Assembly: GCA_046331705.1 (NCBI GenBank)
Contig: JAXLQJ010000040.1
Location: 50,805-70,804, forward strand
Reading direction: 5' to 3'
DNA length: 20,000 nt
DNA from: a bacterium
GTDB lineage: Bacteria > JADJOY01
Of the stretch, positions 2,868-16,357 are shown in pieces. A model generated the notes under the pieces. The model saw nothing but the letters and a program-made list of their open reading frames with translations, did not search any database and was not told where the DNA came from. Made by a program: the position numbers and the translations under genes. Each line of letters begins with the position of its first letter. Within the stretch, counting starts at the first letter, position 1.

Positions 2868-3377
2868 TCAGCGCAGACGCTGGATCGCGGTCTGGGCGAC
2901 GGCCCTCAGCTTCCCGTCCGGCGTGGTCTCGCCGGTGATGCCCACGCTCAACCCCACGCGGCCCGACAGGACGCGCAGCTTGTTGAACATGCCGCCTTCC
3001 CAGAACGCCGCGTCGCCGATGCCCGGCACGTCGACGGGCGTGACGTTCATCTGGGTCACCGCCTGCTTCTTCTCGAGGTCGAAGGCGCTGCGAGCGGCGG
3101 CGGCGTCGATGGCGGCGATGACCACCAGGCTCACGCGCTCCATTCCGGTGGCGGCACGATAGGTACAGCTCGTCACGGCGTAGACCGCCGCGCCCTCGAG
3201 GGGATGCTCGGGCTCGCGAACCGGCTTGCCGAGGATTTGCTCGGCCTCGGACTTCGTGACGAGCGCGCAGGCGTCCACCGGCTTGGGCTCGTCGGCGGCT
3301 TGCGCCGCGCGTGTGCCCGCCGCGGCGAGCAGCGTCGCCGAGGCGAGCGCGAGGAATGACCAGGAATGCTTCGCCAT
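2868..3377 (-). CDS. Secreted/periplasmic hypothetical protein (169 aa; loosely DUF3558-like)
   Basis: GGAGG upstream of ATG 3377. Signal peptide MAKHSWSFLALASATLLAAA...AQA. DACALVT..EAEQILG, CTY and VPGIGDAAFW patterns, with two Cys that could form a disulfide. Confidence 0.75.
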   Translation of the reverse strand: MAKHSWSFLALASATLLAAAGTRAAQAADEPKPVDACALVTKSEAEQILGKPVREPEHPLEGAAVYAVTSCTYRAATGMERVSLVVIAAIDAAAARSAFDLEKKQAVTQMNVTPVDVPGIGDAAFWEGGMFNKLRVLSGRVGLSVGITGETTPDGKLRAVAQTAIQRLR

Positions 3378-3471
3378 GACCGCCTCCGCGGGCGCGACGG
3401 GCGAACGATTCGAGCGTGGTGACATCGCACGCTGCCGCACGACTCTCCCTCGGCGCCGACGCGAGACGGTT

Positions 3472-3477
3472 TATGCT
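3472..3477 (+). promoter_or_regulatory. Putative -10 element TATGCT of the fni-mvaA-mvaK1 operon
   Basis: AT-rich TTTATGCTA patch about 40 nt upstream of ATG 3520 in a divergent intergenic region. Confidence 0.4.
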
Positions 3478-3519
3478 ACCGGCCCGCGACCGGCGAGTCG
3501 CAGCGAGCCGAGCGCCACC

Positions 3520-4646
3520 ATGCCCACGCGTCCCACTCGAGCCACCCGCCCCGCGCGATCCACGCGCGCCGCGAGCCGCGCCCAGCGCGGCGCGCCGCCC
3601 ACGCCGCTCACGGCGAGCCGGAAGGACAGTCACATCGAGGTGGTGCTGCGCGAGGACGTGGCGCACAAGACCGTCACGAACGGTTTCGAGCGCTACCGCT
3701 TCGATCACGAGGCGCTGCCCGAGATGGACTTCGCCGACGTCGAGCTCTCGATCGAGCTCTTCGGCAAGCGGCTGGCCGCGCCGCTCGTGATCGGCGCGAT
3801 GACCGGCGGCACCGAGCGCAGCCTGCGAATCAATCGCCATCTCGCGGCGGCGGCGCAGGCCGAACGTGTGGGGCTGGCGTTGGGATCGGCGCGCACCGTG
3901 CTCGAGGATCCGGCTCGCGCGCGAACCTACGCCGTTCGCGACGTCGCGCCCGACGCGCTCGTCTTCGCGAACCTCGGCGCGGTGCAGCTTCGGCTCGGCG
4001 TGACTCCCGACGATTGCCGGCGCCTGGTGGAGCTGCTGGAAGCCGACGCGCTCTTCTTGCACCTCAACCCGTTGCAGGAGGTCGTGCAGCCGGAGGGCGA
4101 CACGACCTTCGGCGGCTTGGCGGGGTGCATCGCCGCCGTGGCGCGAGCGCTGGCGCCCACGCCGGTGCTGGTGAAGGAAGTGGGCTCCGGCATCTCCGCC
4201 GCCACCGCCGCGTTGCTTCGCGACGCCGGCGTCGCGGGGATCGAGGTGGCGGGCGCGGGTGGCACGTCGTGGGCACTGATCGAGAGCCATCGCGGCGGCG
4301 ACCCGGCGAAGGCACGCCTCGGCAAGGTGTTCGCCGATTGGGGAATTCCCACGGCGGAGAGCCTGGTGCACGTGCGGCGCGCCTGCCCCACGCTCCCCAT
4401 CATCGCCTCGGGAGGCATTCGCGACGGGATCGAGTCGGCGAAGGCGCTGGCGCTCGGCGCCGATGCCGTGGCGGCCGCCTATCCCTTCCTCGCCGCCGCC
4501 GAATCCTCGGCCGCGGCGGTCGCCGAGCGGATCCGGCTCTTTCGCGACGAGATCCGCACCGCTTGCTTCCTGACCCGCTCCCGCACCGTCGCCGAGCTGC
4601 GAAAGGCGACGCTGCGGCGGGTGGACGGCACCAACGGGGGCGCGTC

Positions 4647-4650
<4 letters not shown>
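3520..4650 (+). CDS. fni: Type 2 (FMN-dependent) isopentenyl-diphosphate delta-isomerase
   Basis: RKDSHI, ALPEMD, GAMTGG, LGSAR, ANLGAVQ, HLNPLQEVVQPEGD, VKEVGSG, GAGGTSW, WGIPT and ASGGIRDG motifs. Confidence 0.96.
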
Positions 4651-5950
<1,300 letters not shown>

Positions 5951-5954
<4 letters not shown>

Positions 5955-6877
5955 TCGGACGCGGTCGAGCCCCGGGCAAGGTGATCCTCGCGGGCGAGCA
6001 CTTCGTGGTGCACGGCGCCCCCGCGATCGCGCTGCCGGTGCGCGCCGTCTTCAAGGAGATCGAGATCGAGGCGGAGCTCGATCCCTACGACCACTCCCTC
6101 GAGCTCGCGATCGTCGATCCGCATCCCGAGCACGAGACACTGCAGCGGATGCTGGTGCGGCTCCTGGAAGCGCTCTCGATTCCGAGCACCGGCGAGATCC
6201 GAATCACCGTGCGCTCGACGCTGGCGCCAGGCGCCCACCTGGGCTCGAGCGCCGCGCTCGCCGTGGCGCTGGTGCGTGCGGTGCTGGATTTTCGCGGGCT
6301 CGAGTACCCGGACGAGGACGTGGCCGCGCTCGCGTTCGATCTGGAACGCATCGTCCACAAGAACCCGTCGGGGATCGACAACACGGTGGTGGCGCTCGAC
6401 CGGCCGATCTGGTTCAAGAAGGGCGTCGCGCCCGAGACCATCACCTCGACGCTCGAGGCGACGCTCTTGCTCGCGGATACCGGGGTCGCGTCCAGCACTG
6501 CGGAGGTGGTCGCGCGCGTCGGCGAGTTCCGGGTCGAGCGCGGCGAGCGATTCGCGCAGCTGCTCGAAGCCGCCACCGCCACGGCCACGCGACTGCGCGA
6601 GGCGCTCGCGACGGGCGATGCGTCCGCGGCCGGCGCGTGCCTGGACCAGAATCAAGCGCTTCTGGCCGAGGTCGGCGCCAGCTCTCTCGAGCTCGAGGCC
6701 CTCGTCGCCGCCGCGCGCCGGGCCGGCGCCCTCGGCGCCAAGCTCACCGGCGGCGGTGGCGGCGGAAACGCCATCGCGCTTTGCGCGCCAAACCAACGCG
6801 ACGCCGTCCGCGCCGCGCTGGTCGCGGCCGGAGCGGTGAACGTGATCGAGGTGCCCTTCAGCCGTGCAACAGCCTGA
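5951..6877 (+). CDS. mvaK1: Mevalonate kinase (GHMP family)
   Basis: GTGA overlap with the mvaA stop. Motifs PGKVILAGEH, PGAHLGSSAA, HKNPSGIDN, ADTG and GAKLTGGGGGG; operon context. Confidence 0.92.
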
Positions 6878-6963
6878 TCGGTCGCAAGTGCGGCCGGTCT
6901 ACCGGCTCGGACAGCCGCATCGACTCCTCGTCTCGCTGCACGCGATCGCCGGAGTTGCGACGG

Positions 6964-8310
6964 CTACTTCATCGACACCATGTAGGCCGTGAGCTGGTCG
7001 AGCTCTTTCTCGGTGAGCCGCTTGTAGGGCGGCATCGAGGTGTCCTCGTAGAGGCTGTCCGGGTCGCGGATGTACTGGCGGATCCGTTCGGCGGTGCGGT
7101 TCTGCCCGATGAACGAGAGGTCGGGTCCGCTGCCCGCGCCCTCACCGCGCAGCTTGTGGCAGGTGGCGCATTCGTTGTTCTGGTAGAGCTTCTCGCCCGC
7201 GCGCACGTCGGAGTCGAGCATCCAGGCGAGGGTCGACTTGTCCGACGCCACCGCCAGGCCCGTGAGCGCGACGACGCCGAACGCCACGACGAAGCCGCCG
7301 AGCAGGATCCCGGCGCGGCGGCGCGGCTCGCGGCTCGCGCTTCGATCGAGGAACGGCACCAGCGCGACCATCCCCACCAGCACCGCCGGAACCACCAGCG
7401 CCGCCAGCCACTCGAGCGAGCCGGGGAAGAGCTTCTGGATCTGGAACAGGAAGAGGAAGTTCCATTCCGGCCGCGGCAGGAACGAGGTGTCCGACGGATT
7501 CGCGAGGGTGCGGTGCGGGTGGTACTGCCAGGCGGCCGCGGCCACGATCGCCGCCACCAGCAACACGATCGCGATCGCATCCTTCACGACCTGGTGGGGG
7601 AAGAAGCCGGTCGCCTCGCGCGCCGGCGCGGCGCTCGCCGACTTCCAGTGCCCGGCCGGCCCCACCAGACGCAGGAACAACAGGTGGAGCACGATCGCGG
7701 CGCCGACGATCGCCGGCAGCACCATCACGTGGATCGCGAAGAAATGAGTCAGCGTCACGGCGCCGACCTCCGGCCCGCCGCGCATCATTCGCATCACCCA
7801 CTCGCCGATGATGGGAGTGTTTCGCGCCAGCGCGGTCCCGACCTCCGTCGCCCAGTAGCCCTCCTGATCCCACGGCAGCGCGTAGCCGGTGAAGTGGAAC
7901 GCCTGGACCAAGAGCAGCAGCACCACGCCGCTCAGCCACACGACCTCGCGCGGTCGCTTGTAGGCGCCGAACACGAACGCCTGCGCCACGTGCACCAGCA
8001 CCAGACCCACGAGCACGTTGGCGCCGAGATGGTGGACACCGAGCAGCACGCGGCCGAGAGGAATCTCCTTCTCGACGTACTCGAGGGTCGCGAGCGCGTG
8101 GTCCGGCGAAGGCACGTAGTAGGCGGCGATCACGATGCCCGTGATCGCCTGCAGCCCGATCAGCGCCAGGCACATGCTGCCGAACACGTACGACCAGCGA
8201 GCGCCGCCGGGAATCGACTCGTGCAGAAACGCGCCGAGCGCCTTGCGCAGCGGTACGCGCTCTTCGAGCGCATCCAACAAGCCCGTCGTGGGCGAACGTG
8301 TAGCATCCAT
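6964..8310 (-). CDS. qcrB: Cytochrome b of a Rieske/cytochrome b complex, fused to a C-terminal monoheme cytochrome c (448 aa)
   Basis: GAGGAG upstream of ATG 8310. Heme b His pairs (GVHHLGANVLVGLVLVH; AIHVMVLPAIVGAAIVLH), GAYKRPRE, TGYALPWDQ and PEWN. About 7 hydrophobic helices, then CATCH, GPDLS and distal MP. Confidence 0.93.
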   Translation of the reverse strand: MDATRSPTTGLLDALEERVPLRKALGAFLHESIPGGARWSYVFGSMCLALIGLQAITGIVIAAYYVPSPDHALATLEYVEKEIPLGRVLLGVHHLGANVLVGLVLVHVAQAFVFGAYKRPREVVWLSGVVLLLLVQAFHFTGYALPWDQEGYWATEVGTALARNTPIIGEWVMRMMRGGPEVGAVTLTHFFAIHVMVLPAIVGAAIVLHLLFLRLVGPAGHWKSASAAPAREATGFFPHQVVKDAIAIVLLVAAIVAAAAWQYHPHRTLANPSDTSFLPRPEWNFLFLFQIQKLFPGSLEWLAALVVPAVLVGMVALVPFLDRSASREPRRRAGILLGGFVVAFGVVALTGLAVASDKSTLAWMLDSDVRAGEKLYQNNECATCHKLRGEGAGSGPDLSFIGQNRTAERIRQYIRDPDSLYEDTSMPPYKRLTEKELDQLTAYMVSMK

Positions 8311-8347
8311 CTCGATCTCCTCGCGCGAGCGCCGCTCGGTGCGCCGC

Positions 8348-8842
8348 TCAGACGCTGAAGCGCACCTTGAGCCGTCCGTCCTCGACCTTGACCGGCAGCC
8401 GATCCAGGCCCCGCGGCGGCGGCCCGCCCACGACCTTGCCGGCGCGGTCGTACTGACCGCCATGGCAAGGGCACTCGAAGCGCGACGAGCTCTCGTCCCA
8501 CCGGTACGCACAGCCCAGGTGGGTGCAGCGGGCGTTGAAGACCGTCACCTCGTCGCTCGCGTCGCGGACCGCCCACGCCGCTCGGCGCGACGTGGTCTCG
8601 AGCCAGGCGTCCTGCTCCTTCACGGTCGCGACGACTTGCTTCGGCTCGCCCACGGGCAGGTTGTCGACGGCGCACACGTCCACCCACTCGCCCTCCGCAT
8701 CCGGGCGAAAGGCGGGCGCGAGGAGTGGCGTGCCGGCGACCACCGCGGCGGTGGCCGCGTAGGCACCACCGAGGGTGGCCGCGGTGACCGCCAGGAACGT
8801 GCGCCGCGACGATCGGTCGGCGCGCTCGTCGTCGCCGCTCAT
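8348..8842 (-). CDS. qcrA: Rieske [2Fe-2S] subunit of a Rieske/cytochrome b complex
   Basis: Tat motif SRRTFL followed by a hydrophobic helix. CTHLGC and CPCHGGQY boxes, GPPPRGL. Confidence 0.95.
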   Translation of the reverse strand: MSGDDERADRSSRRTFLAVTAATLGGAYAATAAVVAGTPLLAPAFRPDAEGEWVDVCAVDNLPVGEPKQVVATVKEQDAWLETTSRRAAWAVRDASDEVTVFNARCTHLGCAYRWDESSSRFECPCHGGQYDRAGKVVGGPPPRGLDRLPVKVEDGRLKVRFSV

Positions 8843-9207
8843 GGCTTGGCTCCGGTGGCGCAGAAGCTGCGCACCTTGGCGACCAGGTTCTTGATCTCGT
8901 CGTCGCTCAGCGACTTACCCATGGCCGGCATCTCGCTCTTCTTCCCGGCGATGGCCTTGCCGCCCACCTTCACCACCTCGAAGAGCTTGTCGTCGCTCTC
9001 CTTCGCCATCGCGGCGCAGTCGGTGAAGTCGCGGGGCTTCTCCGCGAGGGTCGCGCCCTCCGCGCCGTCGCCCTTCCCTTCCGCGCCGTGGCATTTCTGG
9101 CAGTACTTCTTGAACTGCTTGTCCGCGACCTCGTCCGCGCGGGCGACGCCCGAGGCTGCGATGGCCAGGGCGCCCGCGGCGACCAGTGCTTTGGTCCACG
9201 TCTTCAT
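8839..9207 (-). CDS. Periplasmic class I monoheme cytochrome c (122 aa)
   Basis: GGAGG upstream of ATG 9207. Signal peptide ending ARA. CQKCHGAEGKGDG, PRDFTD and distal MPA. Stop overlaps the Rieske start (ATGA). Confidence 0.92.
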   Translation of the reverse strand: MKTWTKALVAAGALAIAASGVARADEVADKQFKKYCQKCHGAEGKGDGAEGATLAEKPRDFTDCAAMAKESDDKLFEVVKVGGKAIAGKKSEMPAMGKSLSDDEIKNLVAKVRSFCATGAKP

Positions 9208-9230
9208 GTGCAACCTCCCGATGCGCGGCT

Positions 9231-9521
9231 TCAGCGCGCCTTCATGTATTCGAGGATCGCGTCGGCGGTGTGCGCCGGCAGATTCGCGCGCACCCGCATG
9301 TGCATCAGCACCGTGTCCCACTCGTGCGGCGCCCGATCAGACGCGGGGGGTGGGTTGTGGCAGTTCGAGCAGTACTGCCCCCAGGCGTCCATGCCCGTGA
9401 GATAGAGGTCCTTCGAGTCGCCTTCCGACTCGGCGCGGGCAGGAACCGCCGCACCCGCCGACGAGCCCACGACGATCATCAGCGCGAGCGCGCTGCGTCG
9501 AATCATTCCGTTGGTGTTCAT
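9231..9521 (-). CDS. Small exported monoheme cytochrome c (96 aa)
   Basis: GAGGAG upstream. Signal peptide, WGQYCSNCHN heme-binding motif, and EW..VLMHMRVRANL with a candidate distal Met or His ligand. Confidence 0.85.
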   Translation of the reverse strand: MNTNGMIRRSALALMIVVGSSAGAAVPARAESEGDSKDLYLTGMDAWGQYCSNCHNPPPASDRAPHEWDTVLMHMRVRANLPAHTADAILEYMKAR

Positions 9522-9554
9522 GGATGTGCTCTCCTCGCTGGCGCGATCGCGCGC

Positions 9555-10748
9555 TCAGAATCCGAACGCGAATTGGGCGTGGACCTCGTGACCTTCCTTC
9601 TCCGCCTTGCGCTCGTCGAAGTCGTACTCGGCCTTGAACACGAGCATCGGGCTGAACCAGTAGTCGATGCCCGCCGCGAGCTGGCGAATGCGCGGGTTCG
9701 GCTGGTCGGGTGCGTCCTCGGGTGCCGCCGGCTGGTTCTGCTGGCTGTAACGCAACACCAGCTCGGTGCGGTCGAGGATCGGCAAACCCAGCGGCGTCAG
9801 CTTGTAGGCCGCTTGCGCGTATCCACCTTGCCGGTGCTCTGTGGAGGCGCCGTCGGGAAGCTCACGCCAGAAGTCCACGAACTCGCCGCGCAGCTCCAGG
9901 TAGCCGATCTTGTACGCGGCGTCGGCGCCCCAGACGTTGAGCCACAAGCTCTGGTGCTGGTCGTCCCAGGTGCCGTTGTAGGTGGAAAGGCCGATCTTGA
10001 GCCGGCCAAGCTCGGCGGAGAGCGGTAACGGGCGGATCCCGATGCGCGCGCCGAAGGCCTTGCTCTTGTTGATGTCGGCGTTGTTCGCGGCCTCGAGCAA
10101 CGAGCCGGCGCCCGCGTCCGCGAACTTGGGACCGTTGCTCACGTAGAGCGCGTACTCGAGGTCCACGCCATCGTCGCCCATGAGCGGGATGCCGCCGCGC
10201 AGCTGCGCGCCGACCTCGCTGAACGGCAGCAGCCCCTCCTCGTGGCGAAACGGTAGCGGCGTCGAGGCGAGCTTGTTGATCCAGGTCGGCTGGATGCGCT
10301 CGTTGAAGTCGCCGAACGGCGTGAGGAACTTGCCGGCGACCAAGGTCACGTAGTCGTTGAAGAGGTAGTCGAGCTGGCCGTACTCGAGATTGACCTCGGT
10401 CTCGCCGTCGCTGGGTAGCTCGAACTCGGCCTCCGCCTCGACCAGGGCCTTGTCCGTGATCCTGAACAGGAACAACGGCTCGATCTCGGCCGTGAACGTG
10501 TTGGACTCGTCGTGGGCCGCCCAGTCGTAGCCAGCCGCACCGCTACCGGCGATCACGAACCGCGATTCACCCCAATAGTCCGCGAGCGCTCGAGCGATCG
10601 AGTCGCTGCTGGCGGACGCCGTCGCGGTCGCAGCCGCGTCGGACGAGTCGGCCGCCCGCGCACGCGGCACGCCCATCGCGCCGGTGACGACCAGCGCCAG
10701 CAACCCAGACGACACCACGGCCCGCGCCGTGATGAATGGCGGTTTCAT
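9555..10748 (-). CDS. Outer-membrane beta-barrel porin (loosely OprO/OprP-like; 397 aa)
   Basis: AAGGAG upstream of ATG 10748. Signal peptide ending ARA, alternating amphipathic strands (LEYGQLDY, LVAGKFLTPFG, GGYAQAAY) and a C-terminal AQFAFGF beta-signal ending in Phe. Confidence 0.85.
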   Translation of the reverse strand: MKPPFITARAVVSSGLLALVVTGAMGVPRARAADSSDAAATATASASSDSIARALADYWGESRFVIAGSGAAGYDWAAHDESNTFTAEIEPLFLFRITDKALVEAEAEFELPSDGETEVNLEYGQLDYLFNDYVTLVAGKFLTPFGDFNERIQPTWINKLASTPLPFRHEEGLLPFSEVGAQLRGGIPLMGDDGVDLEYALYVSNGPKFADAGAGSLLEAANNADINKSKAFGARIGIRPLPLSAELGRLKIGLSTYNGTWDDQHQSLWLNVWGADAAYKIGYLELRGEFVDFWRELPDGASTEHRQGGYAQAAYKLTPLGLPILDRTELVLRYSQQNQPAAPEDAPDQPNPRIRQLAAGIDYWFSPMLVFKAEYDFDERKAEKEGHEVHAQFAFGF

Positions 10749-10981
10749 CTCTTTCTCCTTTCGGTGACGGAAATCGCGTGGACCAAGCGCAAGACGGGTG
10801 CCGGGTGAGGGGAAACGCTCGTTCGATCGGTGCACGACCGGTGAGCGAGCACGGATCGCTCCCCGAATCGGATGCTCAGACGACTGTGACGTCGTGTGGA
10901 ATTCGAGCGCGAGGCGCGCTCTCTACATTCGTTCGACGCGCGCGCTCGTGTGGAAACCGCCCATCTCACGAATGCTCGACG

Positions 10982-11030
10982 AGCGGCTTGCGTGCCACGT
11001 CACGCGGGCGTGACCTGGCACCCGAAGCGC
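10982..11030. promoter_or_regulatory. 30-bp imperfect palindrome whose arms form two divergent sigma54-like GG-N10-GC motifs
   Basis: GTGCCA-c-GTCACGC-gg-GCGTGAC-c-TGGCAC at 10992-11021. Minus strand reads TGGCACGCAAGCCGCT (10997 to 10982); plus strand reads TGGCACCCGAAGCGC (11016-11030). Both lack the consensus TT before GC. Confidence 0.4.
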
Positions 11031-11278
11031 GACCGACGATCGTGTCCAGACGGCAACCGATCGAGACTCACGCCTTCGAGAACGTCGTTCTGCACGCGCG
11101 TCGGGGCACCGTCGACGGTCGACGATCCGTCCGCGGCGGCGAGTGGCGCTGCGTCGAGAAGTCACCGGCGACGTGACGCAGCGCACGCGCCAACGGAGAC
11201 GGCACGCGCGACGTCGCACCGCAAACGGAGCTAGCTTGCGCCGAATCGCGCGCCCGCACGGCGCGTCGAGGCGCACGC

Positions 11279-12271
11279 ATGCACGCCACCGCCACCGCGC
11301 ATCCGAACATCGCCCTGGTGAAGTACTGGGGGAAGCGCGACGCGGCGCTCAACCTGCCGCGCGAGGGGAGCCTCTCGCTCACGCTCGCCGGCATGGAGTC
11401 GCGCACCAGCGTTCGCTTCGACCGAACCCTCGCCCGCGACCAGCTGGTCCTCGACGGCACGACCGCGCCCGAGGCTTCACTGCGCAAGGCGGTGCGGATC
11501 CTCGACGACGTGAGGCGGCGCAGCAGCGGTCGACTCTCCGACGTTCACGCGCAGGTCGAGAGCACGAACGACTTCCCCACGGGTGCCGGGCTGGCGTCGA
11601 GCGCAAGCGGCTTCGCGGCGCTGGCGTGCGCCGCGGCCGCCGCGGCGGACCTCGAGCTCGCCCCCGACGAGCTCTCGGTCCTGGCCCGTCTCGGCTCGGG
11701 CTCGGCGTGTCGCTCGGTGCTGGGCGGCTTCGTCGAGTGGCGGCGTGGCGAACGCGACGACGGCCTGGATTCGCACGCCGTCGAGATCGCGCCGCCATCG
11801 CACTGGAACGTGGCGATGCTCGTGGCCGTGGTGGCCGAGGCGCCGAAGTCCGTCTCCTCGACCGAAGGCATGGAGCGCACCCGCGCGACCTCGCCTTTCT
11901 ACGAGGCGTTTCTGGCTTCCATCCCCGCGGATCTGGCGAGCGCTCGCGAGGCCGTGCTGAGCCGCGAGCTCGCGGCGCTCGGCGTGGTGATGGAGCGCAA
12001 CTGCTTGCGCATGCACGCCGCGATGCTCGCCGCCGAGCCGGCGCTGGTCTACCTGCGCGGCGCCTCGCTGGCGGTCACCGAGCGGGTGCGCGCCTTGCGG
12101 CACGGTGGAACCCCCGCGTACTTCACGATCGACGCGGGCCCGAACGTGAAAGTGCTCTGCGAATCGGCGAACGCCGGCTCCGTCGAGAAAGCGCTCGCCG
12201 CCGTGCCCGGCGTGATTCGCGTCATCCGCGCCGTGCCGGGACCGGCCGCGCGGATCGTCGAGCGTGGCTGA
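11279..12271 (+). CDS. mvaD: Diphosphomevalonate decarboxylase
   Basis: HPNIALVKYWGK, SLSLTL, NDFPTGAGLASSASGFAAL, ARLGSGSACRS, VSSTEGM and YFTIDAGPNVK motifs. GAGG at 11268-11271. Confidence 0.95.
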   Translation: MHATATAHPNIALVKYWGKRDAALNLPREGSLSLTLAGMESRTSVRFDRTLARDQLVLDGTTAPEASLRKAVRILDDVRRRSSGRLSDVHAQVESTNDFPTGAGLASSASGFAALACAAAAAADLELAPDELSVLARLGSGSACRSVLGGFVEWRRGERDDGLDSHAVEIAPPSHWNVAMLVAVVAEAPKSVSSTEGMERTRATSPFYEAFLASIPADLASAREAVLSRELAALGVVMERNCLRMHAAMLAAEPALVYLRGASLAVTERVRALRHGGTPAYFTIDAGPNVKVLCESANAGSVEKALAAVPGVIRVIRAVPGPAARIVERG

Positions 12272-12301
12272 CCTTCCTCACTCGCCCTCCGAAAGACACC
12301 C

Positions 12302-13639
12302 ATGACGGATCCGAACGCGTCCCACGAGCAGAAGGTGGCGAAGATCGCCGAGTCCTTGCGAGCGCTCGCCGCGCACGGCGAGCACGCGCACATCGAGAAG
12401 GGCGGCGTTCATCACTTCGTGCCGCTGCCCAAGGACCCGCGCTTCGCGGGCCGCGCGGTGGACGCGTCGTCGCTCGATCAGGTGCTCGCCATCGATCGCG
12501 AGCGCCGCGTCTGCGTCGCCGAGCCCGGTGTCACGTTCGCCACGCTGGCGCGCGCGACGCTCGCTCACGGGCTCCTCCCCACCGTGGTCCCCGAGCTCGA
12601 GGGGATCACCATCGGCGGCGCCATCGCCGGCTGCTCGGTGGAATCGATGTCCTACCGCTACGGCGGCTTCCACGACTCGTGCAGCGAGTACGAGGTCGTG
12701 ACCGGAACCGGCGACGTCGTGAGGTGCTCGCGCAGCGAGCGCGCCCTCGCCTTCGAGATGATCCACGGCTCGTACGGAACCTTGGGCGTTCTCGCCAAGG
12801 CCACCTTCGGTCTCGTGCCGGCGAAGCCCTTCGTGCACATGCGCTACGTCCGGCACACGAGCTTCGCGGCGTTCGAACGCGAGCTGCGCGAGCGCTGCGC
12901 CGCTGGCGAGGACGACTTCATCGACGCGATCATCCATCGCCCGGACGCGCTGGTGCTCTGCCTCGGGCGATTCGAGGACTCGGCGCCCTACACCTCGAGC
13001 TACCGACGGCTCGAGATCTTCTACAAGAGCACGCTGGCGCGCACCGAGGACCATCTCGCGACCCTCGACTACTGCTTCCGCTACGACACCGAATGCCACT
13101 GGCTCACGGCCACCTTCCCGCCCCTCGAGTGGAAGCCCGTGCGCTTCCTCCTGGGCAAGTGGCTGCTCGGCTCGACCAACCTGATCCGCGCCTCGGGCAC
13201 GCTGGCGCCGCTGCTCGCGCTCAAGCGGCGCCCCGACGTGGTCTGCGACGTCTTCATCCCGGCCCGCCGCTTCGGCGAGTTCTGGGAGTGGTACGCCCGC
13301 GACTTCGACTTCTTCCCGCTCTGGATCGTCCCCTACCGGGTGCCGGCGATGTATCCGTGGATCTCGCCAGCCCACGCGGCGCGCATGCACGACGAGCTCT
13401 TCATCGATTGCGCGATCTACGGCAAGCCCAACGCCGACCCGCGCGTCGACTGGTCCGAGCGTCTCGAGGAAAAGACCTACGAGCTGGGCGGCATCAAGAC
13501 CCTGATCTCGCGCAATCACTACGATCAGGAGCGCTTCTGGTCGATCTATCACCGCGAGAACTACGACGCGATCAAGCGCGAGCACGACCCCCGCGGCGTG
13601 TTTCCGGGGCTCTACGAGAAGCTCCACCGCGTCGGCTGA
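12302..13639 (+). CDS. FAD-binding oxidoreductase (VAO/PCMH fold), delta24-sterol reductase (DHCR24)/BfaA-like
   Basis: AEPGVT, VVPELEGITIGGAIAGCSVESMSYRYG, YEVVTGTG, GSYGTLG, FPLWIVP and C-terminal FPGLYEK resemble DHCR24/DWF1-family motifs as I recall them. Confidence 0.8.
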   Translation: MTDPNASHEQKVAKIAESLRALAAHGEHAHIEKGGVHHFVPLPKDPRFAGRAVDASSLDQVLAIDRERRVCVAEPGVTFATLARATLAHGLLPTVVPELEGITIGGAIAGCSVESMSYRYGGFHDSCSEYEVVTGTGDVVRCSRSERALAFEMIHGSYGTLGVLAKATFGLVPAKPFVHMRYVRHTSFAAFERELRERCAAGEDDFIDAIIHRPDALVLCLGRFEDSAPYTSSYRRLEIFYKSTLARTEDHLATLDYCFRYDTECHWLTATFPPLEWKPVRFLLGKWLLGSTNLIRASGTLAPLLALKRRPDVVCDVFIPARRFGEFWEWYARDFDFFPLWIVPYRVPAMYPWISPAHAARMHDELFIDCAIYGKPNADPRVDWSERLEEKTYELGGIKTLISRNHYDQERFWSIYHRENYDAIKREHDPRGVFPGLYEKLHRVG

Positions 13640-14582: not shown

Positions 14583-16163
14583 TCACGAATGCGGCGGGAG
14601 GCGCCACCACCGATTCACCTCGGACATGCGCGTGACCAGCGTCGCGTACGGATCGTCGTGCTCGTCCACCACGCCCCAATTGGAGTCCTCGCCGTCGAAG
14701 CGCCCGCCGTGCGGCTCGTCGACGTGCTCGAACCAGTGGTAGCCGACGACGTAGTCCGAAGCGATCGAGGGCGTCACGTCCTGCTCGAACCAATCGGCCC
14801 GCGCCTTCTGATCGGGGACCACCAGCATCATCGGCGGCCACGTGTTGGGCAGCCCCGAGTCGGCGGCGCGATAGCCGAACTCCGATTGCAGGATCGGACG
14901 GCCGGTGACGGCGTGGATCGCGGCGAAGTCGTCGCCATCGGGCAAGAAGAGCTCGCGTCCCGTGACCAGATTGTCGAGCAGCGAGATCGCCAGCGCCCAC
15001 ACCGGATCGTGCTGGTAGCGGTTGACCGACACCACGTCGACGAGGCTCGCGGAGGCGCGCATCACCTCGGGATAGACGAGCTGGCCCACCACGCGCTCAC
15101 CCAGGATCAGGTGGTTGGGGTCGGCGGCGCGCACCGCGCCGGTCGCGATCTCGTAGTAGCGTCGCGCCGCCAGCTCGAGGAACGCCTGACGCGCGTCCAT
15201 CTGCTCGACGGTCGGCGGATACACGGCGGGGCCGAGCGTGGTGGCCGCGAGCACCTCGTCGAAGCTCGCGAACGAGCCACCCCACGCCGCGTCGAGCGCC
15301 GCCACGTCGTTGCCGTAGCGCGCCCGCAGAAAGTCGACGAGCGCGAGCTTTCCGGGAGCCGTGGAGTCGTATCCCAGGTAGTCGTCGAGCAGGAACGTGA
15401 CCCGCTGATAGGAAGGCCCCCAGCGCATCTCGTTGTCGAGGAAGTAGCCGAGCAGGTCCGGATCGCTCACACGAGACGCGACGCTCGCCGCCGCGATGGA
15501 GGCCGCGCGTGCGGCGAAATCCGGCGCGAAATAGTCCGGGATCGGCCCCGACCAGTTGCCGCCCGCGATGTCGAGGATGACGGTGTAGGCGCGGCCCGAG
15601 CCCGCGAAGCTCTCGCTCCAGGCGCCCAACGTGTTGAAGCCCCACGCGTCGTAGCGGCGGCCGACCTCCTCCGCCCATGCGGCGCGGGAGCCATAGCGGG
15701 CGACGTTGGCGTCGTGGTACGGGCTGGTGCCCGTCGAGGGCTCGTAGTCGCCGTCGAATGTGACGTGATTGACGCCCGTCGAGAAGAACGGATGCCCCTC
15801 GGGAGTGACCAGCCACCAGCGATCGGCGGTCTCTTCGACGCGGAAGAATCCGGTTGCCCCGAGATCCATCCCGGTCCAACCACCCCACGAATCGGCCGCT
15901 GGCCCGTCCACTCCGTCGCAGTCTCGATCGATGCCGTCGACCTCGTCGTCGACGGCGCCGGGGTGGACGGTCGGGTCGAGATCGTCGCAGTCGGCCACGC
16001 GCGGGTCCACTCGGCTCGCAGCGCCGGCCTGGTAACCGTCGGCGTCGCCGTCGCAGCCAGCGAGGGGAACGAGCGCGGCGAGCGAGAGCACGAGCCACAC
16101 CGCGGCGCTCGGCCGGACGTGCCAGCGAGAGCGGATCGGGTTCCAGGGCGAGAGCGGAAGCAT
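14583..16163 (-). CDS. Lipoprotein glycoside hydrolase, beta-agarase/GH50-like (clan GH-A), with an N-terminal MopE-type Cys/Asp repeat
   Basis: GGAG upstream of ATG 16163 and lipobox LAGC. DCDDLDPTVHPGA....DGIDRDCDG repeat. GFFRVE..RWWLVTPEGHPFFSTG, WGFNTLGAWS, GYFLDNE (acid/base), DPNHLILG, ILQSEF (nucleophile) and VGYHWF..DEP motifs. Confidence 0.8.
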   Translation of the reverse strand: MLPLSPWNPIRSRWHVRPSAAVWLVLSLAALVPLAGCDGDADGYQAGAASRVDPRVADCDDLDPTVHPGAVDDEVDGIDRDCDGVDGPAADSWGGWTGMDLGATGFFRVEETADRWWLVTPEGHPFFSTGVNHVTFDGDYEPSTGTSPYHDANVARYGSRAAWAEEVGRRYDAWGFNTLGAWSESFAGSGRAYTVILDIAGGNWSGPIPDYFAPDFAARAASIAAASVASRVSDPDLLGYFLDNEMRWGPSYQRVTFLLDDYLGYDSTAPGKLALVDFLRARYGNDVAALDAAWGGSFASFDEVLAATTLGPAVYPPTVEQMDARQAFLELAARRYYEIATGAVRAADPNHLILGERVVGQLVYPEVMRASASLVDVVSVNRYQHDPVWALAISLLDNLVTGRELFLPDGDDFAAIHAVTGRPILQSEFGYRAADSGLPNTWPPMMLVVPDQKARADWFEQDVTPSIASDYVVGYHWFEHVDEPHGGRFDGEDSNWGVVDEHDDPYATLVTRMSEVNRWWRLPPHS

Positions 16164-16357
16164 CGACGACTCCGGGCAACGAGAGGAGCCACGCACGGAA
16201 CCGAGCACGCGCGCACGGCACGCACGAACGACCCTCTCATGCTACGCAGCGCGCACGGTTCGGCTCAACCGCGGCGCTCGGCGCCGGGAACCGCCGCGCC
16301 GAGGACACCGCCGCGGTCGTCGCGTATCGTGGCGAACCCTGCGGCGGATCGATGGCG

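Follow-up and report, generated by a model that had tools for sequence, protein, structure and literature searches.

Five genes on the minus strand of a 20,000-nucleotide stretch of bacterial DNA (contig JAXLQJ010000040.1; this whole stretch is the window, and all positions are counted within it) encode an outer-membrane porin, a very small c-type cytochrome, a periplasmic cytochrome c, a Rieske protein and a cytochrome b with a fused cytochrome c domain. They occupy positions 6964 to 10748 and are the subject of this analysis. An earlier note made from the sequence had described five co-oriented and tightly spaced genes with no terminal oxidase or reductase among them, and both points hold: the six-frame listing of open reading frames (ORFs) and the gene calls place all five genes in the same orientation, with gaps along the block in gene order of 33, 23, −4 and 37 nt, and the block encodes no oxidase or reductase. 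The G+C contents at third (0.84–0.91) and second (0.46–0.56) codon positions in all five frames are the coding signature of a genome with 70% G+C.

The first gene (10748..9555) encodes the porin of 397 amino acids (aa), assigned from its match to Pfam Porin_O_P, its modelled barrel and Foldseek; the match to Porin_O_P (PF07396) is marginal, with 25 bits against a cut-off of 20.9 and only residues 264–319 aligned, and many relatives of the porin carry PF07396 or PF13609. The second (9521..9231) encodes a 96-aa class I-type cytochrome c with one haem motif, CSNCH, for which no Pfam family matched and for which the sole NCBIfam match is the C-terminal haem domain of TorC (E 0.004); a cleavage site read by eye as ARA/ES would leave a mature protein of about 66 aa. 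The third (9207..8839) encodes a 122-aa periplasmic class I cytochrome c with a Sec signal and the motif CQKCH, matched by Pfam Cytochrome_CBB3 at 6e-10 and also by Cytochrom_C, which we presume to be the carrier between the bc complex and the porin-bound cytochrome. Its stop codon is overlapped by 4 nt by the start of the fourth gene (8842..8348), which encodes a 164-aa Rieske [2Fe-2S] subunit with a Tat signal (SRRTFL) and the boxes CTHLGC and CPCHGG; Pfam Rieske (PF00355) matches at 1.3e-13, and the b6f and bc1 Rieske models of NCBIfam give matches too, both short of their cut-offs. The last gene (8310..6964) encodes a 448-aa protein composed of a b6-like N-terminal part (Cytochrome_B, PF00033, 2.9e-44), a subunit IV-like part (Cytochrom_B_C, PF00032, 2.9e-5) and a fused C-terminal one-haem cytochrome c domain (Cytochrom_C, PF00034, 1.1e-11) with the motif CATCH. 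Together, the two Rieske boxes, the two cytochrome b parts and the c-type haem domain are those of a bc1/b6f-type complex. A 410-aa minus-strand ORF at 5564..6796 was considered as a sixth gene and rejected as the antisense shadow of a GHMP-kinase gene.

That kinase gene (5951–6877, plus strand; GHMP_kinases_N and GHMP_kinases_C match 5951–6874) belongs to a mevalonate-pathway operon that flanks the block on both sides and extends over 3226–13639. Upstream of it lie genes for a type-2 isopentenyl diphosphate (IPP) isomerase-like flavin mononucleotide (FMN) enzyme (3226–4650) and for a hydroxymethylglutaryl-CoA (HMG-CoA) reductase ending at 5954; on the far side of the block is a divergent diphosphomevalonate decarboxylase gene (11279–12271), followed by a gene for a flavin adenine dinucleotide (FAD)-binding protein. 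We compared five relatives, namely four congeneric species and a member of another genus in the family, whose genomes are 74–100% complete. The genes for HMG-CoA reductase, mevalonate kinase and the decarboxylase are directly adjacent in all five, with the FAD-binding gene next in four; in one example (L102), the kinase gene ends at 1488 and the decarboxylase gene starts at 1501. In the window, 4.4 kb with exactly the five genes, in the opposite orientation, part kinase from decarboxylase. Because these two genes adjoin in the relatives, the block was inserted as one piece. One edge of the insertion is an 86-nt stretch between the convergent stop codons of the kinase and cytochrome b genes (6878..6963), the other a non-coding stretch of 530 nt from the porin start to the decarboxylase gene (10749..11278). 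No flanking inverted or direct repeats and no remains of mobile elements were seen at the edges, and the porin half of the block has a G+C content of 0.65–0.67 against 0.70–0.73 in the flanks. In simple scans, no sigma-70-like site was found in the 530-nt spacer, and no convincing terminator was seen; the spacer presumably holds the promoter. The insertion also cuts the downstream mevalonate genes from their upstream promoter unless the spacer supplies one. Further away, 4 kb from the porin, a 541-aa minus-strand ORF (14583–16208) carries a MopE-like putative copper-binding motif that reaches 25.5 bits against a Pfam cut-off of 27.

The porin, the small cytochrome and the cytochrome b are each single-copy in the 8.17-Mb genome (95.7% complete), and the cytochrome b is its only match to PF00033. 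Among the five relatives, the porin has no match at E ≤1e-10 and PF00033 none at all. The genome further holds six matches to COX1, one to a bd oxidase and two loci with ActD of the alternative complex III, the latter both lying on contig 5, each beside NrfD-type and COX1 genes. The block is an accessory module gained en bloc, probably by horizontal transfer, and not a housekeeping bc complex. The earlier note had named as a possible refutation that this might be the genome's only housekeeping bc complex: it does encode the only cytochrome b, but it is accessory, was inserted together with the porin and is absent from the relatives.

Beyond this genome, the porin and the small cytochrome form a conserved pair. 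A search of one-genome-per-species contigs with a single peptide pattern of the porin, drawn from an alignment of 22 relatives, yielded 454 confirmed porin relatives, and the best 80 of these loci were searched with the window proteins by tblastn. In 79 of the 80, the porin is immediately followed by a homologue of the small cytochrome; the exception (L049) stops at the end of the porin. Going by record titles, about a dozen phylum-level labels are represented among the loci: Verrucomicrobiota (23), Gammaproteobacteria (15, plus one Enterobacteriaceae), Planctomycetota (9), Alphaproteobacteria (9), Myxococcota (4), three each from Binatia, "Deltaproteobacteria", Gemmatimonadota and Bacteroidota, and six more labels once each. 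These tallies are by label only, and the labels of L065 (Acidimicrobiia), L002 (Enterobacteriaceae) and L008 (Spirochaetales), which fit poorly with an outer-membrane porin or the composition of the locus, may come from binning errors in the source assemblies. Cultivated bacteria carry the pair as well, for example in records of Marinobacter (L076) and Thermithiobacillus (L066). A distant pair, a porin at a profile E of 7e-22 followed by a 126-aa CxxCH protein, was found in the unrelated genome G344 by a porin-profile search of five cytochrome-b-rich genomes, which also returned one ambiguous porin match 12 kb from a cytochrome b.

Fifty-eight small cytochromes were aligned. All have exactly one CxxCH; W47, C51, C54, H55, W68 and M75 are invariant and N56, H74, R76, R78, A79 and I89 almost so. 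The haem motif is C51-x-x-C54-H55, and M75 (or H74) is the probable sixth ligand. A lipobox-like motif precedes the haem domain in 16 of the 58. The distance matrices of porin and small cytochrome are closely correlated (Mantel r 0.861; 0 of 999 permutations reached this value), and on this ground the two are taken to be inherited as a unit. The profile of the small cytochrome finds 4858 cluster representatives at E ≤0.001, and 935 at ≤1e-10, among 1.84 billion; the ESM Atlas cluster names read "hypothetical protein" or "cytochrome c, class I family". The top 150 of the 4858 are mostly 93–125 aa long, about 25 are two-domain forms of about 165–290 aa, two outliers have 342 aa with three matched stretches and 490 aa with six, and none is a porin-length protein with a single small-cytochrome match. 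A plasmid collection gave nine weak matches to the small cytochrome (Alteromonas, Glaciecola, Legionella) with no porin listed beside them; its annotation is incomplete, and we conclude nothing from them.

Structure prediction gives the porin 16 strands and a low-confidence helix at the N-terminus after the signal peptide (AlphaFold 2; predicted local distance difference test (pLDDT) 83.9). An inward loop, L3, between strands 5 and 6 (residues 143–176) bears the PxWINK motif (residues 154–159) that is invariant in the family. Searched with Foldseek, the model finds 16-strand porins, with top template modelling (TM) scores for OprO (4rjx, 0.60) and OprP (2o4v, 0.58); the sequence profile of the family found no porin among solved structures. 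Most relatives of the porin have a heptad-like, probably coiled-coil segment between signal peptide and barrel (for example L011:6743-8059 and L128:6003-7337), and positions 31–99 of the porin profile weakly match coiled coils in the PDB; at residues 37–61 the window porin has a shorter helix of low confidence. This segment may be a periplasmic trimerisation stalk. The small cytochrome is modelled as three helices with a pLDDT of at least 95 over residues 40–96, and its only matches among solved structures are weak ones to class I cytochromes.

We modelled the complex from porin residues 33–397, haem and cytochrome residues 31–96, with an alignment of 58 rows for each protein. The interaction prediction score from aligned errors (ipSAE) came to 0.91 every time in three runs, and the highest-scoring of three controls had 0.02; the runs share at least 89% of contacts, and the partner has a pLDDT of at least 81. 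When the tool was calibrated, 58 of 80 solved complexes and 2 of 110 mismatched pairs attained the ipSAE mark, counts that apply only roughly here because we used our own alignments and included the ligand. That the score reflects the model's memory is unlikely because no complex like this one, a Cyc2 structure included, has been solved; the passages on Cyc2 in a 2026 review give its structure as not yet solved (PMC13741234). Mapped onto the strands of the AlphaFold 2 model, and assuming the usual porin topology with both termini in the periplasm, 38 of the 44 porin contact residues fall on the periplasmic strand halves and turns, six on loop L3 and none on the outer halves, and I157 of the invariant WINK motif contacts the haem ligand H55. 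The prediction thus has the cytochrome closing the barrel at its periplasmic mouth, its haem segment resting on the constriction loop. The earlier note had suggested that the small cytochrome might sit in the barrel: an interface between the two is indeed predicted, but the model has the haem protein at the mouth, touching L3, and not deep in the lumen.

The earlier note had also proposed to survey the neighbourhoods of porin homologues for conserved linkage to cytochromes and bc genes. Synteny is near-complete for the small cytochrome (79/80), frequent for a class I cytochrome c like that of the window, adjacent in 46 of the 80 loci, and limited to eight loci for cytochrome b (L002, L004, L005, L006, L008, L009, L010 and L063); a Rieske gene is likewise present in eight. 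In 11 loci (L029, L046, L048, L055, L057, L063, L065, L066, L069, L079 and L080), the small cytochrome and a class I domain form one fusion protein of 185–254 aa with two CxxCH motifs; counting neighbours and fusions together, 56 of 80 loci have such a domain. In L063 (Gemmatimonadota), the fusion is directly followed by a 367-aa cytochrome b, and tblastn found no Rieske gene in the locus. The five-gene set itself recurs, in the same order with the porin first in L002, and with the bc genes first in L005, L006 and L008. L004, L009 and L010 have an extra gene between the cytochrome c and Rieske genes for an iron–sulphur (FeS) flavoprotein resembling GltD. Such proteins of about 640 aa, like the small subunit of glutamate synthase, were seen in Binatia and Myxococcales (L004:4366-6294, L009:8786-10714, L010:7002-8567 and L053:914-2887), and the arrangement is reminiscent of Rieske/cytochrome b complexes with a link to NAD(P), which have been proposed for anammox bacteria.

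A second type of quinone-interacting module accompanies the pair in operons of Planctomycetota, Verrucomicrobiota and Bacteroidota, with an NrfD/DsrP-like membrane protein in six of the 80 loci and a DsrO-like FeS protein in five. In the low-G+C operons of Bacteroidota and Planctomycetota, the genes encode an FeS protein, an NrfD-like protein, a protein of about 185 aa, a cytochrome c, the porin and the small cytochrome. Altogether, 14 of 80 loci contain a quinone-interacting module, eight of the Rieske/cytochrome b and six of the NrfCD-like type, and that two non-homologous modules occur with the same pair in different phyla is, among the comparative evidence, the best reason to place the pair at the end of a chain from the quinone pool. 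Other neighbours are genes for two-component regulators of the OmpR or sigma-54 type (30/80 by a strict count) and Cu/Ag-type efflux genes for P1B-ATPase, CusA, CusB or TolC-like proteins (19/80). A count of response regulators in 67 of 80 loci, obtained by loose clustering, was discarded because receiver and kinase proteins with no relation to each other had been lumped in the cluster. A single OmpR-type response regulator was scanned and best matches cztR/silR/copR, below the cut-off; of two sensor kinases scanned, one best matches cztS/silS/copS, also below the cut-off, and the other AtoS/ZraS-type kinases. As to the signal or substrate, these regulators and efflux genes suggest metals or envelope stress. 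In six Planctomycetota loci (L019, L020, L021, L025, L027 and L053; e.g. L020:3769-6813), three genes come before the pair: one for a membrane protein like cytochrome oxidase subunit III, one for a dihaem cytochrome c and one for a conserved protein of 257 aa that NCBIfam does not match. A protein of the PEP-CTERM-associated TIGR03118 family is encoded downstream on the same strand in six loci of Verrucomicrobiota and Methylomirabilota (L013, L039, L040, L051, L067 and L075), about 0.5 kb or less away in four and about 3 kb in two.

A 4.2-kb stretch of the locus recurs almost word for word in DNA sequencing runs from activated sludge, wastewater and digesters, more than half of its sampled words being present in 14 runs of nine studies. 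Contigs of four metatranscriptome runs (two studies) cover parts of all five genes with at least 99% identity. They span the junctions between porin, small cytochrome and cytochrome c genes (X15 record 4, 9070–9696; X16 record 11, 9131–9631; X17 record 16) and between cytochrome c and Rieske genes (X17 record 15, 8747–8976) and extend upstream of the porin to 10856; 6800–6940 and 10889–11000 are uncovered in the four RNA-library runs, a lack of cover that proves nothing. This pattern fits one transcript for the block but does not show it.

With a probability of roughly 0.55, we favour a model whereby the block is a horizontally acquired respiratory module in which a porin-bound haem exchanges electrons at the pore and is tied to the quinone pool. 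In this model, the 16-strand porin, plugged at its periplasmic mouth by the 66-aa one-haem cytochrome, would form an obligate two-gene cytochrome-porin. The bound haem, lying against the constriction loop, would exchange electrons with a small redox-active solute that enters the pore and, on the periplasmic face, with the soluble 122-aa cytochrome c, which the Rieske/cytochrome b-c complex would in turn connect to the (mena)quinone pool. The crossing of electrons at the pore, and its direction, we infer. We lean modestly towards outward flow, from quinol to an oxidant at the pore, because a lineage that has alternative complex III–oxidase chains gained a bc complex together with the pore, and oxidation of a donor needs no bc complex of its own. 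Candidate substrates are metal ions (Fe, Cu or Mn, for example) and toxic oxyanions like those of the ext system of Geobacter.

Several observations weigh against this model. A quinone module is present in only 14 of 80 loci, and 26, several of them short, have none of the three classes of neighbour (two-component regulators, metal efflux, quinone module); the regulators (30/80) and Cu/Ag efflux genes (19/80) fit stress or detoxification as well as they fit respiration. Co-divergence of neighbours that share kinship is no proof of contact, and the model of the complex supports binding of porin and cytochrome without showing it. Conservation of the porin interface slightly exceeds that of the rest of the barrel (0.609 vs 0.540, p 0.016), the interface takes six of the 30 most conserved positions against 3.9 expected, and the interface residues of the cytochrome do not differ in conservation from its other residues (p 0.36). 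The contigs of the RNA libraries may be of DNA origin, and no single transcript is shown by them. Finally, solids lie beyond the reach of a His/Met one-haem centre at the periplasmic mouth, which could act on solutes only if the pore is as narrow as that of OprP.

Three other explanations can be set against the same evidence. Electrons might flow inward, as in a split Cyc2, with the porin-bound haem oxidising a dissolved reductant such as Fe(II) or Cu(I) and passing electrons through the 122-aa cytochrome c to oxidases, while the bc complex works backwards or has no more than the carrier in common with this path; many genomes would then use the pair as a haem-based cuprous or ferrous oxidase, for detoxifying metals more than for energy gain. 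His/Met class I haems usually have a high potential, which favours such a direction, as do the Cyc2-like layout (one haem, a 16-strand OprO/P-like barrel and a cytochrome on the periplasmic side), the Cu/Ag-type efflux genes, and the regulators, of which the scanned response regulator and one kinase best match heavy-metal models below their cut-offs. We nevertheless consider inward flow unlikely: the features of the Cyc2 family are missing, neither a regulator nor a metal-efflux gene lies beside the window copy, and the block brought its own bc complex into a lineage with alternative complex III–oxidase chains and with no bc complex in the relatives, whereas downhill oxidation of a donor needs none.

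It is more doubtful still that no electrons are exchanged at the pore, the porin being an ordinary solute (anion) channel on which the cytochrome is anchored or for which it forms a redox-sensitive lid, opening or closing with the state of the cytochrome pool in the periplasm. The haem protein is modelled at the periplasmic mouth and does not span the membrane, the lipobox-like motif in 16 of 58 members suggests that these are membrane-tethered anyway, and for ExtI of Geobacter the suggested roles are to keep haem proteins stable or in place, or to let oxyanions in (PMC5877670). A mere anchor, however, leaves unexplained the repeated linkage to cytochromes (56/80) and quinone modules (14/80) and the modelled contact of the haem segment with the invariant motif of the constriction loop. 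We give very little credence to a chance juxtaposition in which a housekeeping Rieske/cytochrome b complex and its cytochrome c happen to lie beside an unrelated porin operon. The cytochrome b gene is the only one in the genome and its homologues occur in only eight of the 80 porin loci, as such a juxtaposition would have it; yet porin and cytochrome b are both missing from the five nearest relatives, the block is one insert in the mevalonate operon, the same set of five is found again in L002, with its order kept, and rearranged in L005, L006 and L008, and the two alternative complex III loci provide a housekeeping route. Electron exchange at the porin-bound haem, tied to the quinone pool, is the reading that we retain.

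The pair and the block look like a compact, previously undescribed electron route between quinone pool and cell surface. More tentatively, and with somewhat less confidence than we have in the reading of the block itself, we speculate that the pair represents a large family of redox gates in the outer membrane, each made of two proteins, which is analogous but not homologous to Cyc2, has spread horizontally over at least a dozen phyla and uses whichever quinone module its host has, be it Rieske/cytochrome b, NrfCD-like or another. Outer-membrane conduits are known in two forms, large systems with many haems (Mtr, Pio, Pcc) and Cyc2 with its one haem and fused barrel, and marker-gene surveys of iron and electrode metabolism are built on them. 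A two-gene, one-haem cytochrome-porin unrelated to them in sequence would escape such surveys, although it is common (935 representatives of the small cytochrome at E ≤1e-10; 454 porin relatives) and small (397 and 96 aa as encoded, one haem). If so, many heterotrophs in sludge, soil and sea could, at their surface, trade electrons of respiration with metals or oxyanions in solution, a capacity uncounted in current surveys of iron genes and electron transfer. One species that gained the whole five-gene module among congeners without it constitutes a natural experiment, and this together with the cultivated carriers makes electron entry or exit through a small porin directly testable.

Of the known systems, Cyc2 is closest in layout. 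Cyc2, Cyc2PV-1 and Cyt572 are the Fe(II) oxidases of Acidithiobacillus, Mariprofundus and Leptospirillum; the hallmarks of Cyc2 are a fused N-terminal cytochrome, a 16-strand OprO/P-like barrel and the motif PXFAR[Q/K][T/Y] before CXXCH (Keffer 2021, PMC8406198), its cytochrome is thought to plug the barrel's periplasmic opening, and its electrons pass in iron oxidisers to periplasmic class I cytochromes and on to bc1 or the alternative complex III (PMC8406198, PMC13741234). The pair described here shares with it the single c-type haem, a 16-strand barrel resembling OprO/OprP and, in our model, the position of the cytochrome at the periplasmic opening. Unlike Cyc2, in which the cytochrome is the N-terminal domain of a single protein, the pair is encoded by two separate genes with the porin first, none of the 58 small cytochromes has FAR[QK][TY], and there is no iron-oxidiser context. 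No PXFAR-type motif occurs in the six-frame translation of the genome itself or of the 80 loci, and the Cyc2 motif with exact spacing is absent from the genome behind L066 and from a class-level sample of 61 genomes; allowing a variable gap, the motif is found in 14 of 40 Acidithiobacillales genomes, from which 11 sequences were aligned. Compared by hhalign with the resulting profile, whose sensitivity is limited by the close kinship of its 11 sequences, the porin family reaches a probability of 0.3% and the small cytochrome one of 10% over 12 columns. The pair is judged to resemble Cyc2 in layout and, by its sequences, not to be a member or homologue of that family. As for the "split Cyc2-like" wire suggested in the earlier note, the pair has the single haem, the 16-strand barrel and, by prediction, the plug of Cyc2, but neither its motif (0/58) nor homology between profiles.

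The barrel is also akin to OprP and OprO of Pseudomonas (PDB 2o4v, 4rjx, 4rjw) in its 16-strand fold (top TM-scores 0.58–0.60) and its weak Porin_O_P match, but differs from them in its obligate cytochrome partner and in that the family profile finds no solved porin. As in MtrCAB, MtoAB and PioAB, an outer-membrane barrel holds (here by prediction) a c-type cytochrome encoded by a neighbouring gene and is linked to carriers in the periplasm and inner membrane. In those systems, a 26-strand barrel surrounds a membrane-spanning decahaem wire (PMC8406198), whereas our model has 16 strands and one haem at the periplasmic mouth, and for this reason only dissolved substrates are conceivable. A paper on Methylobacter (PMC13322032) was considered and set aside, as its subject is an MtrAB-type decahaem system and a different family. 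In full-text searches of the literature, supplements not covered, we found no description of a two-gene, one-haem cytochrome-porin, nor is one given in the passages cited here or in those of PMC10654088 and PMC5566968.

The closest published architecture, and the sole published cluster that we found of an OprP-like porin with a bc-type complex, is extHIJKLMNOPQS of Geobacter sulfurreducens. This conserved cluster encodes the Porin_O_P-type porin ExtI and, directly after it, ExtJ, a small periplasmic protein of 104 aa, then c-type cytochromes and further on the Rieske protein ExtO, the b6-like cytochrome b ExtP, the subunit IV-like membrane protein ExtQ and the cytochrome c ExtS; loss of extI impairs reduction of selenite and tellurite and alters the pattern of haem proteins (PMC5877670, PMC6148476). 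The two clusters match in architecture only. In the passages cited, ext includes the multihaem cytochromes ExtKL, ExtM and ExtN (5, 12, 10 and 4 haems are given within ext) and the rhodanese lipoprotein ExtH, and neither multihaem cytochromes nor a rhodanese are found in the block or its flanks in the window; ExtJ is described there without a haem, whereas the small protein of the window has one; and ExtI is described with 21 (or 12) membrane segments, against 16 strands in our porin model. The window cytochrome b scores 172.5 bits with the ExtP model (NF040969; cut-off 290), and the porin and small cytochrome matched no Ext model in NCBIfam at E up to 10. In a scan of 401 genomes, the cut-off of NF040969 was exceeded by three proteins (L116–L118; G474, G164 and G327), all of them QcrB of Bacillales qcrABC operons, and also by a Bacillus subtilis control; because ordinary QcrB passes, this model can misname cytochrome b6-type proteins as selenite/tellurite-operon proteins. 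What window and ext have in common is a Porin_O_P-type porin, a protein of about 100 aa, a Rieske protein and a cytochrome b in one cluster, and the pair described here may in turn explain the role of the extI–extJ pair of Geobacter.

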